4,474 bases of DNA from a virus. Lineage: Duplodnaviria; Heunggongvirae; Uroviricota; Caudoviricetes. Positions 431-4,474 of the stretch are shown one piece after another. Under the pieces are notes generated by a model. That model was given only the letters and a program-made list of their open reading frames with translations. It ran no database searches and was not told the origin of the DNA. How positions within the stretch are numbered: position 1 is the stretch's first letter; every line of letters starts with the position of its first letter. A program made the position numbers and the translations under genes. The stretch is taken from IMG/VR virus record IMGVR_UViG_2693429584_000015. One strand, 5' to 3'.

Positions 431-526
431 AAAAAGCTTGCTTTTTTACGCAGAAACAGCTTGAATTCCTGTAAGCTTCGCAAAGCTGTATCGCGAGGCG
501 AAATGCAAGTTTTTTCGCACAAGGAA
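431..526 (+). promoter_or_regulatory. Candidate late-promoter / qut-like leader between Q-like gene and first terminator
   Basis: AT-rich interval with four AGCT(T/G) repeats (435-439, 458-462, 474-478, 484-488), an AT hairpin (431-448) and a 6-bp stem gcgaaa/tttcgc (498-518). No clean sigma70 -35/-10 pair could be fixed by eye. Role inferred by analogy to lambda PR'-qut-tR' organisation. Confidence 0.3.
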
Positions 527-548
527 GCCACCGGAAGGTGGTTTTTTT
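527..548 (+). terminator. Rho-independent terminator (tR'-like candidate)
   Basis: Stem gccacc (527-532) / ggtgg(t) (537-542) with a GGAA tetraloop, followed by a 7-T run (542-548). Confidence 0.6.
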
Positions 549-671
549 GTGTCCGTAATATACAGCAGCGCAATAAATTCGCTGGTGGTTATTAATACCG
601 TTCTTTCAGCTTGCTGGCTTTTTCGACAAGAGTTATTGGTGTGTCACGTTAACCGGAAAAGGGAAAAAGGC

Positions 672-869
672 ATGCTAAAACAGCAGGATATGACCGAAAC
701 CGCCAGAGTGGTGTTTAATGAATTAAGCGTCACCGAACCGGCGACCGTCGAGGAAATTGCGCAGAACACTTATCTTTCACGCGAACGCTGCCAGTTAATA
801 CTGACCCAGCTTGTTATGGCGGGTCTGGCAGATTATCAGTTCGGTTGTTACAGACGCCTTCCTCAGTGA
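672..869 (+). CDS. Small (65 aa) hypothetical protein, winged-helix-like (FaeA/PapI-like pattern, tentative)
   Basis: ATG at 672 preceded by a purine-rich stretch (aaaagggaaaaagg). Sequence MLKQQDMTETARVVFNELSVTEPATVEEIAQNTYLSRERCQLILTQLVMAGLA... shows a helix-turn-helix-like 'T..EIA ... S..R...L..L...G' pattern. The longer GTG-initiated form from 549 was rejected because it starts inside the upstream terminator T-tract. Stop codon sits inside the downstream terminator hairpin. Confidence 0.45.
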   Translation: MLKQQDMTETARVVFNELSVTEPATVEEIAQNTYLSRERCQLILTQLVMAGLADYQFGCYRRLPQ

Positions 870-879
870 AGGCTTTTTT
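856..879 (+). terminator. Rho-independent terminator
   Basis: Perfect 6-bp stem gccttc (856-861) / gaaggc (868-873), 6-nt loop, then a 6-T run (874-879). Confidence 0.55.
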
Positions 880-1019
880 ATTTGTGGTAATGGGCGGCTG
901 GTGGGTGTTAGCGGCACCTGCCAGCCATCTGCTCATGCGTTGGGGTCACAAGCAAACCTCAGGCCCATCTGCTTTGCGCAAAAGCGGTATGAGCCTATCA
1001 GAGAAGTGCTTATTGATCT

Positions 1020-2081
1020 ATGGCTAATACTGTAAAAATATCCAGTTGTAAGTTAATCAACGCTGATTGCCTGGAATTTATCCAGACCTTACCGGAAAAC
1101 TCTGTCGATCTGATAGTCACAGACCCGCCATACTTTAAAGTGAAGCCCGAGGGCTGGGATAACCAGTGGAAGGGCGACGATGATTACCTGAAGTGGCTGG
1201 ACCAGTGTCTGGCGCAGTTCTGGCGGGTGCTGAAACCTGCCGGAAGTCTTTACCTGTTCTGTGGTCATCGCCTGGCATCTGATATCGAAATCATGATGCG
1301 TGAACGCTTCAGTGTGCTGAACCATATTATCTGGGCGAAGCCGTCCGGACGCTGGAACGGATGCAACAAGGAAAGCCTGCGGGCGTATTTCCCCGCCACA
1401 GAGCGCATTCTGTTCGCGGAACATTATCAGGGGCCGTATCGTCCGAAAGATGCCGGGTATGCGGCGAAGGGCAGTGCACTGAAACAGCATGTGATGGCCC
1501 CGCTGATTTCTTACTTTCGTGATGCGCGTGCTGCTCTGGGGATAACGGCAAAACAGATTGCAGATGCCACAGGAAAGAAAAACATGGTGTCGCACTGGTT
1601 CAGTGCCAGTCAGTGGCAGCTGCCGAACGAAAGCGATTATCTGAAATTACAGGCCCTGTTTGCCCGGGTGGCAGAAGAGAAGCATCAGCGCGGTGAACTG
1701 GAATGGCCACACCACCAGCTGGTCAGCACATACAGTGAACTTAACCGGCAATATGCCAGCCTGCTGGAGGAGTACAAATCTTTGCGGCGTTATTTTTCTG
1801 TATCGGCTGCTGTTCCGTATACGGATGTCTGGATGTATAAGCCTGTACAGTATTATCCGGGCAAACACCCCTGTGAAAAACCGGCAGATATGTTGCGTCA
1901 GATAATAGAGGCCAGCAGTCGTCCGGGTGATTTGGTTGCCGACTTTTTTATGGGGTCAGGTTCCACGATAAAAGCCGCGCTTTCGCTTGGTCGTCGGGCA
2001 ATAGTTGAGCTTGAGGCTGAACGGTTTGAGCAGACGGTGAGCGAGATAAGAGAAATTCTGACGTGTAAAGCTGTTGACTGA
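1020..2081 (+). CDS. DNA methyltransferase, beta-class (N6-adenine or N4-cytosine), orphan (no adjacent restriction endonuclease)
   Basis: 353-aa ORF with an in-frame TGA at 1014-1016 fixing ATG 1020 as the first start. Catalytic motif IV 'DPPY' near the N-terminus (LIVTDPPYF) and AdoMet-binding motif I near the C-terminus (DLVADFFMGSGST); this IV-before-I order defines beta-class amino-MTases. 'HPCEKP' is typical of the class. Weak SD. Confidence 0.9.
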   Translation: MANTVKISSCKLINADCLEFIQTLPENSVDLIVTDPPYFKVKPEGWDNQWKGDDDYLKWLDQCLAQFWRVLKPAGSLYLFCGHRLASDIEIMMRERFSVLNHIIWAKPSGRWNGCNKESLRAYFPATERILFAEHYQGPYRPKDAGYAAKGSALKQHVMAPLISYFRDARAALGITAKQIADATGKKNMVSHWFSASQWQLPNESDYLKLQALFARVAEEKHQRGELEWPHHQLVSTYSELNRQYASLLEEYKSLRRYFSVSAAVPYTDVWMYKPVQYYPGKHPCEKPADMLRQIIEASSRPGDLVADFFMGSGSTIKAALSLGRRAIVELEAERFEQTVSEIREILTCKAVD

Positions 2082-2187
2082 TTAATCAATGCTTATTTTT
2101 TCATAAGTCTTGTTGCAATATATAAGTATGGGGTGTAAAGTTGTTCTCGAAAATAATCATGTTTTCTCACGAATCAGAGGGGGGATA

Positions 2188-2448
2188 ATGATTGAGGTTC
2201 GATGGACAAGGACAGCCCTGAAGCAGTTACTTCGTGTGGATACGCGGTATCGGCAGGCGATAAAGGATAAGGTCGGTGCGCTAAAGGATTTTCCTCTGGT
2301 AGCCATGGATTTTAAAAAGCTATCAGGGAGTGACAATCGATTCCGTTTGAGGGTCGGCGTGTACAGGGTTATTTTTGATGTTGAGGATGGTGATCCTGTT
2401 GTCCTGGATATTAAGGAAATTAAGCGCAGAAGCACAACCACATACTAA
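2188..2448 (+). CDS. Type II toxin, RelE/ParE superfamily (HigB-like gene order)
   Basis: 86-aa ORF; ATG 2188 preceded by a strong SD (gaGGGGGGataATG). N-terminus MIEVRWTRTALKQL and the core FRLRVGVYRVIFDVEDGDPVVLDIKEIKRR match the RelE/ParE fold signature. The upstream TTG extension in the ORF track (2110) was rejected. Followed 60 nt later by an HTH protein. Confidence 0.8.
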   Translation: MIEVRWTRTALKQLLRVDTRYRQAIKDKVGALKDFPLVAMDFKKLSGSDNRFRLRVGVYRVIFDVEDGDPVVLDIKEIKRRSTTTY

Positions 2449-2454
2449 GGGAGG

Positions 2455-2472
2455 CTGGCGGGAGACCGCCAG
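2455..2472 (+). promoter_or_regulatory. Intercistronic hairpin between toxin and antitoxin genes
   Basis: Perfect 7-bp inverted repeat ctggcgg (2455-2461) / ccgccag (2466-2472) with a GAGA loop; only 3 T's follow, so not a classic terminator. Could be an operator palindrome or an mRNA structure tuning antitoxin translation. Confidence 0.4.
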
Positions 2473-2508
2473 TTTGCTGAACGACATTCAATCGCGAAAG
2501 GCAATGAT

Positions 2509-2883
2509 ATGAAAAACAGTGTCCAGTTTATTACTGATAATGCCGGTGTTAGAACCGGGGTCATTATGTCAGTTGCTGAATATGAACGGCTGTTAAGTCT
2601 GGCAGATCCTGATGATGATTTTGAAAGCATCCAGTATGAAGCCGGAGAGCATGACAATGAAACAATACCTCATGAAGTAGTATCCATCATGATTGATGAT
2701 GATGTGTCATTGTTGGCAGCATGGCGGATTTACAGGCGAATGACTCAACAGGAAGTGGCGGAGCGCCTGGGGGTTAAACAGTCAGCCGTATCTCAGTTTG
2801 AGAGAGCAGGAGCTCCGCGAAAATCAACACTGGAAAAACTGGCTGAGATTTACAACTGCCGACCAAATCAGTTGGCTGATTAA
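2509..2883 (+). CDS. Type II antitoxin, two-domain: N-terminal antitoxin-like segment plus C-terminal HTH (XRE-family)
   Basis: 124-aa ORF; ATG 2509 with an upstream aaagg. C-terminal MTQQEVAERLGVKQSAVSQFERAG...STLEKLAEIY is a canonical XRE/Cro-type helix-turn-helix; the N-terminal part (VQFITDNAGVRTGVIMSVAEYERLL) resembles antitoxin N-domains. Acidic linker in between. Toxin-first order as in HigBA-type modules. Confidence 0.75.
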   Translation: MKNSVQFITDNAGVRTGVIMSVAEYERLLSLADPDDDFESIQYEAGEHDNETIPHEVVSIMIDDDVSLLAAWRIYRRMTQQEVAERLGVKQSAVSQFERAGAPRKSTLEKLAEIYNCRPNQLAD

Positions 2884-3028
2884 TCCTGAGTTTGGTTTTC
2901 GTAGCGATTGCATTTTTCTTATCTGCTTGCCGTTGTAGGTAGCGTGTATTTGCATGTTGTTTTGTAGTTAACCTTATGATTGGCTGAATTTTGTTCATCA
3001 ATAAAAAATATCCCTCTCTGATCTTTAA

Positions 3029-3054
3029 GGTTCGCTTTGGCGGACCTTTTTTTT
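3029..3054 (+). terminator. Rho-independent terminator (end of the TA transcript, candidate)
   Basis: Stem ggttcgc (3029-3035) / gcggacc (3040-3046) with one G-U wobble, loop tttg, then an 8-T run (3047-3054). Confidence 0.6.
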
Positions 3055-3190
3055 ATTTCCGCGCCACGCCCGGCGTACATCAAAAACCACAGAGCCTTTC
3101 AGGGGTGAGCTTACGGGATGGTCAGTGTGACTTTCTCTGTGGGCTGGTCACCCCCGGGCGCAGGCTCACCCACTAAAAGGAAAAGTCACG

Positions 3191-3622
3191 ATGTTTGGTA
3201 TTTTCAAAAAGAAAACCCGCAGAGCAGCAACTGAAATTAAAAAGTTTGAGAAACGCGATCTGGCACAGGCGGTTATTAATGCTGCCTACCTGGTGGCCTA
3301 TGCAGATGGTGAATGTGAGACTTCAGAGAAAGCGAAGATCGAACAGGTATTACGTAACCAGCCAGCATTGTCCGCATTTACGTCAGAAATTAATGCCATC
3401 AGTGCCACGATCACAGGTCAGCTTGACACCAATTTTAAAATTGGTCGTCGTGCAGCGTTGCGTGAAATTGAAGATGTGAAACACGATACGCGTGAAGCGG
3501 AAGATGTGCTGGATGTGGCGGTGGCCATTGCTGAAGCAGATGGTGAAATTGAGCCGGAAGAGCGTAAGGTTCTGGAAGAGATTGCTGGTGTTCTTGGCCT
3601 GCGACTGGAGAACCACCTGTGA
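3191..3622 (+). CDS. TerB-like (tellurite-resistance TerB domain family) protein
   Basis: 143-aa ORF; ATG 3191 with SD AGGA 9 nt upstream. Two helical repeats each carrying the 'A.ADG' signature (AAYLVAYADGECETSEKAKIEQVL and VAVAIAEADGEIEPEERKVLEEIAGVLGL) typical of TerB-domain proteins. Assigned by motif pattern, not by search. Confidence 0.7.
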   Translation: MFGIFKKKTRRAATEIKKFEKRDLAQAVINAAYLVAYADGECETSEKAKIEQVLRNQPALSAFTSEINAISATITGQLDTNFKIGRRAALREIEDVKHDTREAEDVLDVAVAIAEADGEIEPEERKVLEEIAGVLGLRLENHL

Positions 3623-3786
3623 CGGTAAAACTGCGTCTGGCCGCTGTGGCACTCCTGCTGTTTCTGGTGGTGATGGTGGATTTCACCAGCAGGATCATGT
3701 CGGTGCTGGCGGATGGAGTGCTGGTGGTCGGTATTGTGGTATTGCTGTGGCCGGTGATAAAAAGAAACAGCCTGCATAATGCTTGA
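3619..3786 (+). CDS. Small hydrophobic protein (55 aa, two predicted TM helices), translationally coupled to the TerB-like gene
   Basis: Absent from the supplied ORF track (under its size cut-off); found by manual translation. GTG 3619 overlaps the TerB TGA stop (3620-3622) in a GTGA arrangement, with GGAG (3607-3610) 8 nt upstream. Translation VTVKLRLAAVALLLFLVVMVDFTSRIMSVLADGVLVVGIVVLLWPVIKRNSLHNA has two hydrophobic segments and a basic C-terminus. CTG/GTG-rich codon use matches neighbouring genes. An internal ATG 3673 start would remove the first helix. Confidence 0.45.
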   Translation: MTVKLRLAAVALLLFLVVMVDFTSRIMSVLADGVLVVGIVVLLWPVIKRNSLHNA

Positions 3787-3951
3787 TTTTTTTGTTTACT
3801 GTTTATTAAAAATACTACTGCATGGTGAATCCCCCTGTGCGGAGGGGCAATCAGCAACCAGGTATATGTGATAATCGCGGATTCAGGTGCTGATACTGAA
3901 TTCACCGGGAGGCACCCGGCACCATGCAAGAAAAAGAATGTGCATGCAAAC

Positions 3952-3978
3952 ATGCCCCTCTCCGGAGGGGCATTTTTT
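3952..3978 (+). terminator. Rho-independent terminator (strong)
   Basis: Perfect 7-bp GC-rich stem gcccctc (3954-3960) / gaggggc (3965-3971), extendable by 2 bp, loop tccg, then a 6-T run (3973-3978). Confidence 0.65.
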
Positions 3979-3983
3979 ATGGG

Positions 3984-4010
3984 TAAAAAATGCCCGAATG
4001 GGTTCGGGCA
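3984..4010 (-). terminator. Rho-independent terminator on the minus strand (convergent with the 3952-3978 terminator)
   Basis: Perfect 8-bp stem tgcccgaa (3991-3998) / ttcgggca (4003-4010), 4-nt loop. The A6 run at 3985-3990 becomes a U-tract only for a minus-strand transcript. No minus-strand gene to the right is visible in the window. Confidence 0.45.
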
Positions 4011-4071
4011 ATAGCATGAGATACTGATATTGTTGTGTTGTTATCGTGTGGATTTTAACCAGGGTTTATCA

Positions 4072-4097
4072 GGCTGCGCAACTGCGTGGCCTTTTTT
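4072..4097 (+). terminator. Terminator-like hairpin plus T-run (weak)
   Basis: Stem ggctgcg (4072-4078) / cgtggcc (4085-4091) with two G-U wobbles, 6-nt loop, then a 6-T run (4092-4097). Confidence 0.35.
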
Positions 4098-4105
4098 CAT
4101 TTCTT

Positions 4106-4150
4106 GGGCTGTAGTCCCCGTGTGTCATTCAGGCTTCCGGACTACAGCCC
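4106..4150. repeat. 12-bp perfect inverted repeat with a 21-nt spacer
   Basis: gggctgtagtcc (4106-4117) and its exact reverse complement ggactacagccc (4139-4150), about 45 bp upstream of the esterase start codon. Confidence 0.6.
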
Positions 4151-4193
4151 ACTCCATATCTGATTTAATACACTATCCCGGCCGGGAGGAATA

Positions 4194-4474
4194 ATGACAT
4201 TTAAACATTATGATGTTGTCAGGGCGGCGTCGCCGTCAGACCTTGCGGAAAAGCTGACACACAAACTGAAAGAGGGCTGGCAGCCGTTTGGTAGTCCGGT
4301 GGCCATAACCCCTTATACCCTGATGCAGGCGATTACAGCAGAAGGTGATGTGGTGGTCAGTGGTGCAACTGAGCCGGAGTGGTACTACGTCATCGTACTG
4401 GCCGGGCAGTCCAATGCCATGGCTTACGGTGAAGGGCTTCCGCTGCCGGATTCATACGATGCTCCGGATCCGCG
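4194..4474 (+). CDS. Prophage esterase, nanS-p-like (sialate O-acetylesterase / SGNH-type); 3'-partial, continues beyond the window
   Basis: ATG 4194 with a strong SD GGGAGG (4184-4189). The N-terminal ~50 aa (MTFKHYDVVRAASPSDLAEKLTHKLKEGWQPFGSP...) resemble the small DUF1737-type domain recalled at the N-terminus of prophage NanS-p esterases, followed by the esterase motif YVIVLAGQSNAMAYGEG. No stop before the window end. Confidence 0.7.
   Translation, partial: MTFKHYDVVRAASPSDLAEKLTHKLKEGWQPFGSPVAITPYTLMQAITAEGDVVVSGATEPEWYYVIVLAGQSNAMAYGEGLPLPDSYDAPDP

Follow-up and report, generated by a model that had tools for sequence, protein, structure and literature searches.

The 4,474 nucleotides analysed here (the window, to which all positions refer) belong to a virus of the Caudoviricetes, IMG/VR record IMGVR_UViG_2693429584_000015, and very probably come from a Stx-phage-like but non-Stx lambdoid prophage of Escherichia coli (Stx, Shiga toxin), where they would be the promoter-proximal part of the late operon, with accessory cassettes that would be gated by the late antiterminator Q. 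Eight coding regions are found on the + strand: a Q gene, the beginning of the esterase gene nanS-p and, between these flanks, six coding sequences, none of them for morphogenesis. These encode a winged helix-turn-helix protein (wHTH, 672-869), a DNA methyltransferase (1020-2081), a RelE/ParE-family toxin (2188-2448), its candidate antitoxin (2509-2883) and the products of tciA (3191-3622) and tciB (3619-3786). Moreover, tciA is preceded by a structured leader RNA, which we tentatively propose as a member of an undescribed RNA class. An earlier note on this DNA had read it as starting with a Q-like antiterminator, ending with the start of a nanS-p-like esterase and holding five to six + strand genes unrelated to morphogenesis, in the slot where Stx phages carry stx. 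Homology searches (Pfam, PHROG, solved structures and BLAST against fetched loci) bore out all of this; the alignment of both flanks with Stx and non-Stx prophages, which the note had also suggested, placed the region inside lambdoid prophages and not in a plasmid.

The first open reading frame (ORF) is open from base 2 to a stop at 430, its 5′ end being cut by the window edge so that the first ~34 codons lie upstream. Its product is assigned to the DUF1133 subtype of Q-type late antiterminators, with matches to Pfam DUF1133 (259 bits), Phage_antitermQ (PF06530, 31.3 bits, cut-off 26) and PHROG 753, 'anti-termination protein Q-like'. A full-length homologue matches the Q structures 6p18/6jnx of phage 21 (E=7e-6) in both its N- and C-terminal stretches, and the Q homologue sits after RusA in loci L001, L004, L005 and L007. 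In this line, the DUF1133 proteins of 13 Stx phages had been counted as Q by HHpred (Pinto et al. 2021, PMC8136144). At the opposite end, the 5′ part of nanS-p (4194-4474, +) runs off the window and comprises a DUF1737 region and the start of a SASA/SGNH esterase with the motif GQSN (PF08410, 61.8 bits). It is 95-99.6% identical in nucleotides to annotated yjhS/SASA esterase genes, which are followed by holin and lysozyme. Partial matches to the window occur in 3287 of 5426 complete E. coli genomes, nine of them over 80% or more of its length. E. coli O39:NM F8704-2 aligns with the window from end to end (95.6% identity) and has the region between DUF968-RusA and holin-lysozyme-Rz-terminase-capsid. 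All relatives inspected carry phage replication genes, RusA and Q on the upstream side and a downstream set of holin, lysozyme, Rz and terminase genes; DUF968 upstream and capsid genes downstream are also seen in relatives.

Alignment with these relatives indicates that the window is a typical lambdoid mosaic. Over bases 1-540 it shares 99.8% identity with E. coli 2013C-3342, and over bases 2045-4474 it shares 99.6-100% with Enterobacteria phage PPyecE_EH1910, whose Q differs, while the stretch 541-2044 is only 92-96.5% identical to either of the two. BLAST against the fetched loci showed sharp homology joints: one within the post-Q terminator (540), one close to the 3′ end of the methylase gene (2035-2044), one at the first base of terminator T3 (3028) and one around 3770-3800, before the small RNA STnc100. 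The joint at 540 closes a region with a candidate PR′/qut (438-503, +), with a possible −35 TTGCTT at 438-443 and a −10-like TTGAAT at 461-466. A 31-nt block inside it, TAAGCTTCGCAAAGCTGTATCGCGAGGCGAA (472-502), stays the same in diverged DUF1133-Q loci, Sakai prophage Sp10 among them, with variable flanks on both sides. This block fits a qut or an initial-transcribed region and is a candidate qut site. A tR′-like intrinsic terminator follows (517-552, +), with a 16-bp stem and a U run (−23.9 kcal/mol, z −6.2). From 540 on, homology is to phages with other Q types; phages of three such types each have 85-110 private nucleotides, with a strong terminator of their own at the end, before the common sequence begins. 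As far as these comparisons go, Q, its candidate PR′/qut and the tR′-like terminator are a module that swaps as a unit at 540. AAGCTT/AGCTTG motifs recur in the stretch 431-552, where 431-441 and 505-515 also form an 11-bp inverted repeat; the stretch is a candidate source of a ~75-nt StxS-like PR′ RNA.

The order of genes behind this module establishes the relation to the stx slot. In the Stx2a phage Stx2_EH1910 we find wHTH, methylase, three tRNAs, stx2A, stx2B, STnc100 and nanS-p, and in relatives with the same DUF1133 Q the order is methylase, ileZ/argO tRNAs, T3, tciA, tciB, small RNAs (sRNAs) and nanS-p. Judged by this collinearity, tciAB occupies the exact place of stx2AB and the equivalence of the slots is real. 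No stx ORF was found in the window, whose slot carries the toxin-antitoxin (TA) pair and tciAB; among relatives the content varies between tRNAs, TA, stx, tciAB and other small ORFs. The variable island is, on the other hand, shorter than the 431-4193 proposed in the earlier note: by the same comparison, the part alternating with stx and tRNAs is 2045-3800, and the wHTH gene and the methylase are a backbone common to Stx2 phages and not alternative cargo. The six coding sequences do lie in the interval as claimed, but the 'spacer' at 3787-4193 holds the sRNAs STnc100 and AgvB, which had been read as terminators. A 'moron insertion site' located 3′ of the Q-antiterminated PR′, tolerant of DNA insertions ('morons') and with convergent sRNAs before a conserved phage ORF, was described by Tree et al. 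(2014, PMC4104026). Given this published model and the deposition of PPyecE_EH1910, annotated and 99.6-100% identical from 2045 on, the layout is supported but already known.

Terminator-like sites are enriched on the two strands together (9 against 4.5 ± 1.8 in shuffles), and folding backs five of them on the + strand: the tR′-like one, T2, T3, the STnc100 terminator and T5, with the folded sites of T2, T3 and T5 at 856-873, 3027-3048 and 4071-4092. T2 (856-879, +) is weak (−8.9 kcal/mol, z −1.6) and overlaps the wHTH stop codon. T3 (3027-3056, +; −13.4 kcal/mol, z −3.6) comes directly after the tRNA array in relatives, and because the homology breakpoint falls at 3028 it is assigned to the tciAB cassette, as its 5′ boundary, and not to the TA pair. 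The expectation that each unit is bounded by a terminator of its own is therefore only partly sustained, since scanning and folding detected no such element behind the methylase gene, within the TA pair or in the interval from tciB to STnc100. Something similar applies to the proposed expression of each unit from its own promoter in the lysogen. This agrees with what is published for AgvB (PMC4104026), but a consensus sigma-70 scan returned no + strand site and only three − strand ones, and the sites picked out by eye for PR′, for the TA pair and for AgvB are all weak. Methylases of the M.EcoGII type are reported to stay silent in the lysogen and to be harmful or toxic if made constitutively (PMC5778455).

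These elements suggest a model of expression in two states. For Stx phages, PR′ is described as constitutive and terminated just downstream in lysogens (PMC7547250). In a lysogen of the present prophage, PR′ transcripts would likewise stop at tR′, and T2, T3, the STnc100 terminator and T5 would keep stray transcription off nanS-p and the lysis genes, leaving the cassettes insulated, with AgvB made from its own promoter on the opposite strand. Upon induction, Q-modified RNA polymerase would pass all five terminators and transcribe the whole block, and the methylase would then be made. Translation of tciA would be further gated by its pseudoknotted leader, which is predicted to pair with the ribosome-binding site.

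This leader occupies the 130 nt before tciA (3061-3190, +) and was delimited by conservation, RNAalifold, covariation and a swap test. Its fold begins with a hairpin, P1 (3061-3076), whose loop (3067-3071) pairs with 3156-3160 to form the pseudoknot helix A. Helix B joins 3087-3094 to 3135-3142, helix S joins 3095-3102 to 3173-3180 and takes in the GG of the Shine-Dalgarno sequence, and helix C joins 3103-3111 to 3163-3171. Helices A and B are nested in each other and cross S and C, and the fold must therefore be either doubly pseudoknotted or switching between two states. Among nested folds computed for the window leader, the one pairing the Shine-Dalgarno sequence reaches −49.1 kcal/mol, against −38.2 kcal/mol with B enforced and −40.9 kcal/mol with A and B. 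The leader is kept in Franconibacter, Pantoea, Pseudescherichia, Enterobacter and Citrobacter even where TciA identity drops to 41-44%, being thus more strongly conserved across genera than the protein behind it.

In 248 fetched loci (2.1 Mb), a hidden Markov model built from 14 seed leaders detected 138 copies, some of them diverged, full-length and located before other genes (for example L002 14897-15046, L003 13510-13653, L010, which is Sakai Sp10, 8945-9088, and many IMG/VR loci). Besides TerB/TciA, the genes behind the leader encode the 'antirepressors' P22_AR_N, ANT/KilAC, KilA-N, Rha and Bro-N, HNH_3(+AP2) endonuclease-like proteins, an NMT1-like lipoprotein, a tail-tip-like protein and proteins of no family. 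The ant-type leader precedes ant between the endolysin gene (R) and Rz in PPyecE_EH1910, Stx2_EH1910 and Sakai Sp10, and is present in 308 GenBank phage records, including the Stx1/Stx2 phages Min27 and 86; the tciA-type leader is present in 34 phage records. A hairpin with a T run stands before the leader in 93 of 111 contexts, mostly 8-23 nt ahead of P1 and in a few cases 31-48 nt, and whichever gene comes next, its Shine-Dalgarno sequence is always paired with the 3′ end of the fold.

Single-sequence folding does not single out the leader as a thermodynamic outlier (z only −1.6 to −1.8), and the case for structure therefore rests on covariation and not on energy. RNAalifold on the 14 seeds recovered P1, S, C and an extension. 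Pairs were counted on a covariance-model alignment of 41 matches, in which helices A and B, absent from the model, were unfitted; a MAFFT alignment of the diverse leaders was set aside for this purpose because helix C was mis-registered in several rows. Paired cells amount to 94.8%, against 85.9 ± 0.4% after shuffling, and compensatory changes on both sides affect 23 of 34 pairs, against 7.6 ± 1.8, neither value being reached in 500 shuffles. Sliding the partners by 1-3 columns lowers pairing to 34-48%. In an alignment-free swap test, which compares the duplex energy of each segment with its own partner and with the partners of other members, the own partner was preferred for helices A (−10.95 against −6.99 kcal/mol), B (−12.78 against −8.92 kcal/mol), C (−19.74 against −15.07 kcal/mol) and P1 (−10.21 against −8.20 kcal/mol), with permutation p ≤ 2e-4 for each, values that ignore relatedness and are hence optimistic. 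Helix A, for example, occurs as CGCCC/GGGCG, TCTCAC/GTGAGA, TCGTAC/GTACGA and GTGCC/GGCAC. Rfam 15 has no match to the leader in the window at E ≤ 1 and none relevant to the ant-type copy at E ≤ 10. A limited literature search brought up no relevant description of a moron leader or pseudoknot, so that 'undescribed' is provisional, and among entries EcOnc01-33 in Table S2 of PMC4104026 no Hfq-bound Sakai sRNA corresponding to the Sp10 tciA leader was seen.

Altogether, it is a serious possibility, to which we give slightly less than even weight, that the tciA leader belongs to an undescribed structured RNA class in which the same fold stands before unrelated accessory genes of temperate enterobacterial phages, as a portable 'cassette lock'. 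Such a lock would keep inserted genes translationally silent until a signal arrives, candidates being a ligand, a protein (CsrA, for instance) or the way the RNA folds co-transcriptionally behind Q-modified polymerase. Some copies are incomplete. Four truncated leaders (L242 3002-3107, L168 2237-2343, L170 9211-9312 and L179 653-748) end at model position ~104-112, where unrelated sequence takes over, which suggests recombination inside the leader. In PPompW-type phages (for example LC567834.1, 15665-15709), a stretch matching the leader's first ~48 nt at 83%, from P1 to the 5′ strand of helix B, lies beside an annotated ISEc20 of the IS110 family, and the leader may have been interrupted or targeted by this element.

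Several other explanations were weighed. That the region is a plasmid or chromosomal island with no tie to a prophage late operon is so improbable as to be negligible: nothing was found in its favour, of the 10,045 places matched in E. coli records, 10,014 are chromosomal and only 31 plasmid-borne, and phage genes lie on both sides in all inspected relatives. At the level of the leader, the element could be a feature of the DNA, for instance a protein-binding site or a 'boundary sequence' for recombination, and not a functional RNA. Its position right at the mosaic breakpoint 3028, the truncated copies joined to unrelated sequence and the recurrence of the 'terminator + TTTTTCAT(A/T)TTC' junction before nanS-p would all suit this explanation. 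Nested and crossing inverted repeats that stay paired through many compensatory versions would not, nor would the collapse of ~95% pairing upon sliding by 1-3 columns, the preference for own over swapped partner segments or the constant pairing with the Shine-Dalgarno sequence of the next gene, and we regard a DNA-level role as improbable.

With regard to expression, the cassettes could be classical autonomous morons, each with its own promoter and terminator and expressed for lysogenic conversion, late read-through merely boosting them. TA operons normally autoregulate from a promoter of their own, and a weak candidate, TTGCAA-17-TAAAGT, is seen by eye before the toxin gene (2112-2140). PHROGs, moreover, classes the toxin, TciA and TciB as 'moron, auxiliary metabolic gene and host takeover', and AgvB is made from its own promoter in lysogens, with an effect on fitness (PMC4104026). 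The absence of any sigma-70-like + strand site in the scan, the silence in lysogens and constitutive toxicity of this type of methylase, and the lack of terminators after the methylase and tciB nevertheless speak against autonomy, as does the position of T3, only 5 nt from the Shine-Dalgarno-pairing tciA leader, which leaves no room for a promoter; we consider this explanation unlikely. Somewhat less likely again is an anti-phage defence hotspot, in which methylase, TA pair and TerB/TciB would act in prophage defence or superinfection exclusion to protect the lysogen, much as immune systems do that are carried at other prophage hotspots. RelE-type TA systems and TerB-domain proteins are linked to abortive infection or phage inhibition, including the 'Phi' phenotype of the ter operon, and the slot is highly variable between relatives. 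However, PADLOC-DB 2.0 recognised no complete known defence system in the window, giving only MTase_II and a generic HTH without nuclease partner, no match for the toxin or TciB and a weak one for TerB (E=0.003), and most units have no detectable lysogen promoter.

The preferred reading, that of a late operon with Q-gated cassettes, also has points that weigh against it. The Q activity of DUF1133 proteins is assigned by homology only. The PR′ promoter is not pinpointed: the consensus scan has no match there and the best −10 candidate lacks the conserved A at position 2. No + strand promoter was found by the scan for the TA or tciAB cassettes, so that some of the cargo, or none of it, may be expressed in the lysogen. 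The lysis genes lie outside the window and are placed from relatives that share its 3′ end at 95-99.6% identity. Lastly, the methylase lacks the G of 'RAIGVELE' (~2003-2008, residues 328-329), which is present in four of four relatives, including the 98%-identical enzyme of PPyecE_EH1910.

The wHTH protein of the backbone (65 residues, product of the first late gene) matches PHROG 331 (E=3e-37), with weak TrmB/wHTH Pfam matches below cut-off, and its gene is also found in Stx2_EH1910, phiP27 and 1720a-02. The methylase (353 residues; PF01555, 141.7 bits) is assigned to the orphan beta-class N6-adenine DNA methyltransferases of the M.EcoGII family. Its motifs follow the beta-class order, DPPY (residues 35-38) coming before FMGSGS (FxGxG, residues 309-314), and it is 89% identical to the enzyme of phage 1720a-02. 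No restriction-enzyme gene was found beside it among the window ORFs or by PADLOC. We infer for it a late anti-restriction function, in which it would modify progeny DNA, and not the role of a lysogenic-conversion gene; its activity may be impaired through the missing G. The leader of the methylase gene (880-1019) has an unusually stable predicted fold (−63.1 kcal/mol, z −3.5), which includes a 14-bp hairpin at ~894-926, and comes after a terminator and a 'TTTTTTATTT' junction, like the other cassettes.

The TA module measures 983 bp (2045-3027, +), as delimited by the breakpoints 2035-2044 and 3028, and also provides the last ~12 methylase codons. It stands in place of the ileZ/argO tRNA array carried by relatives; a tRNA scan of the window gave zero genes, and the array is thus truly absent. 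The module is rare: 11 of the 5426 E. coli genomes carry it, as does a single phage record, always after this methylase, and a plasmid search returned a single irrelevant match of 89 nt. The toxin (86 residues) belongs to the RelE/ParE family (PF05016, 33.2 bits, cut-off 23; PHROG 1213, 'RelE-like toxin') and matches the RelE3 structure 3bpq (E=0.002). The antitoxin candidate (124 residues) has an N-terminal region of ~60 residues followed by a C-terminal Xre-type HTH (HTH_3, 46.5 bits, residues 72-120), and matches PHROG 7241 over its full length (E=2e-50). Its gene lies 60 nt downstream of that of the toxin in the same orientation, and the pair moves as one module. A toxin of known family and an adjacent small DNA-binding partner are both present, toxin gene first, and by these features the pair is a candidate type II TA system. 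The pair would probably autoregulate from a weak promoter of its own. A strong GC hairpin between the two genes (2452-2475; −20.6 kcal/mol, z −4.2) lacks a proper U run and could be an attenuator or mRNA-stability element setting the toxin:antitoxin ratio.

In the tciAB cassette, tciA encodes a TerB-domain protein of 143 residues (PF05099, 60.9 bits; PHROG 632) and tciB a hydrophobic DUF3927 membrane peptide of 55 residues (PF13064, 59.3 bits; PHROG 1470). The GTG start of tciB overlaps the tciA stop (GTGA), which suggests translational coupling. The module is common, with 3582 places in 1242 genomes. A 2.9-kb contig of a metagenome-assembled genome (MAG) labelled 'Proteobacteria bacterium' (L012, JAFAFL010000075.1) encodes a TciA 99% identical behind an E. 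coli-type leader, and is probably an Escherichia prophage fragment binned into the MAG.

Two sRNA genes stand back to back ahead of nanS-p (3794-4046) as a convergent pair. STnc100 (3794-3984, +; Rfam RF02076, 144.7 bits, gathering 47, full model length) has its own terminator at 3952-3973 (−21.4 kcal/mol). A homologue lies 75 nt after stx2B in Stx2_EH1910 (PMC12370729). STnc100 is related to PasD (bioRxiv 10.64898/2026.05.13.724894) and corresponds to EcOnc27 of Sakai Sp5, listed in Table S2 of Tree et al. with a northern blot at ~235/247 nt (PMC4104026). On the opposite strand, AgvB (4046-3985, −; Rfam RF02702, 96.5 bits, gathering 56) is an anti-sRNA that sponges GcvB, shown in Sakai to relieve GcvB repression (PMC4104026). 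The sequence in the window equals the family consensus, including the CACAACA mimic of the GcvB seed and ACAACACAACAA, with a 3′ terminator of its own (4010-3991, −) and a putative −10, TAAAAT (4057-4052, −). Terminator T5 (4071-4098, +; −14.9 kcal/mol, z −3.2) overlaps the putative AgvB promoter. The nanS-p 5′ leader then contains a perfect 12-bp hairpin (4105-4150, +; leader fold −34.2 kcal/mol, z −3.1). T5 and its 'TTTTTTCATTTCT' tail resemble the terminators preceding copies of the leader family, with a different structure, the 12-bp hairpin, coming next. The same Table S2 has '5′ ECs1961' as a homologue of the Hfq-bound RNA EcOnc06 (PMC4104026). Two small ORFs were dismissed as genes, with no meaningful family: 3868-4014, because it lies inside the STnc100/AgvB region, and 4030-4194, because it lies in the region of the AgvB promoter and nanS-p leader, its only match being a sub-threshold DUF3054 (E=0.049). 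NCBIfam gave nothing at its cut-offs for the window proteins.

The stx position of lambdoid prophages is thus a known moron hot-spot with convergent sRNAs, to which the island itself adds little. It does offer a clean case of module swapping at precise joints, namely after tR′, at the methylase end, at T3 before tciA and before STnc100, and shows that a TA pair can stand in for a tRNA array. If the proposed RNA class is real, phage accessory genes, ant of Stx phages among them, would share one cis-regulatory device, and this would open a testable route to understanding how prophages hold risky cargo silent in lysogens and turn it on in lytic growth.

Among known systems, the closest is PPyecE_EH1910 (LC567835.1), a non-Stx lambdoid prophage of Shiga toxin-producing E. 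coli O145:H28. Beyond the near-identity from 2045 on, it is 96.5% identical over 541-2044 and has the same gene order: wHTH, methylase, 'plasmid stabilization protein' (the toxin), regulator, TciA/TerB, tciB, yjhS and holin. It differs in its Q gene (381 bp) and PR′/tR′ region, homology starting at 540, and its sRNAs and leader are unannotated. Prophage Sp10 of E. coli O157:H7 Sakai, the AgvB1 locus (PMC4104026), shares Q, terminator, leader, tciA, convergent sRNAs including AgvB, nanS-p (ECs_1961) and holin; its tciAB module is 89% identical, tciB being present but unannotated. Neither the wHTH-methylase block nor the TA pair is present in Sp10, where the ileZ/argO tRNAs are retained. Stx2_EH1910 (LC567834.1) and other Stx2 phages have the wHTH-methylase block (88.6%), STnc100 and nanS-p (94.7%) in the same order, but another Q type, and three tRNAs and stx2AB where the window has TA and terminator-leader-tciAB; the leader model found no family member ahead of stx2A in Stx2_EH1910.

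M.EcoGII, a non-specific adenine methylase from a prophage of E. coli O104:H4 (PMC5778455), is like the window enzyme an orphan, prophage-borne methylase of ~350 residues with the beta-class order DPPY/target-recognition domain/FxGxG. The likeness runs via the enzyme of phage 1720a-02, described as 'very similar' to M.EcoGII (PMC5778455), and not from direct identity to M.EcoGII. With respect to relatives of this type, the window methylase is missing one residue behind the FxGxG region, and its C-terminal 12 residues differ.

The cassette lock, in turn, recalls the translational occlusion of selfish genes inserted in phage T4, where the ribosome-binding site of homing endonucleases is reportedly hidden in read-through transcripts. 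In both cases an accessory gene lies in an operon behind an RNA structure that pairs its Shine-Dalgarno sequence, and the targets of the leader family are partly HNH_3/AP2 homing-endonuclease-like, as the occluded T4 genes are said to be. The leader differs from T4 occlusion in being a conserved, covarying, multi-helix pseudoknotted element common to unrelated genes, and in being preceded by a terminator instead of overlapped by a late promoter.

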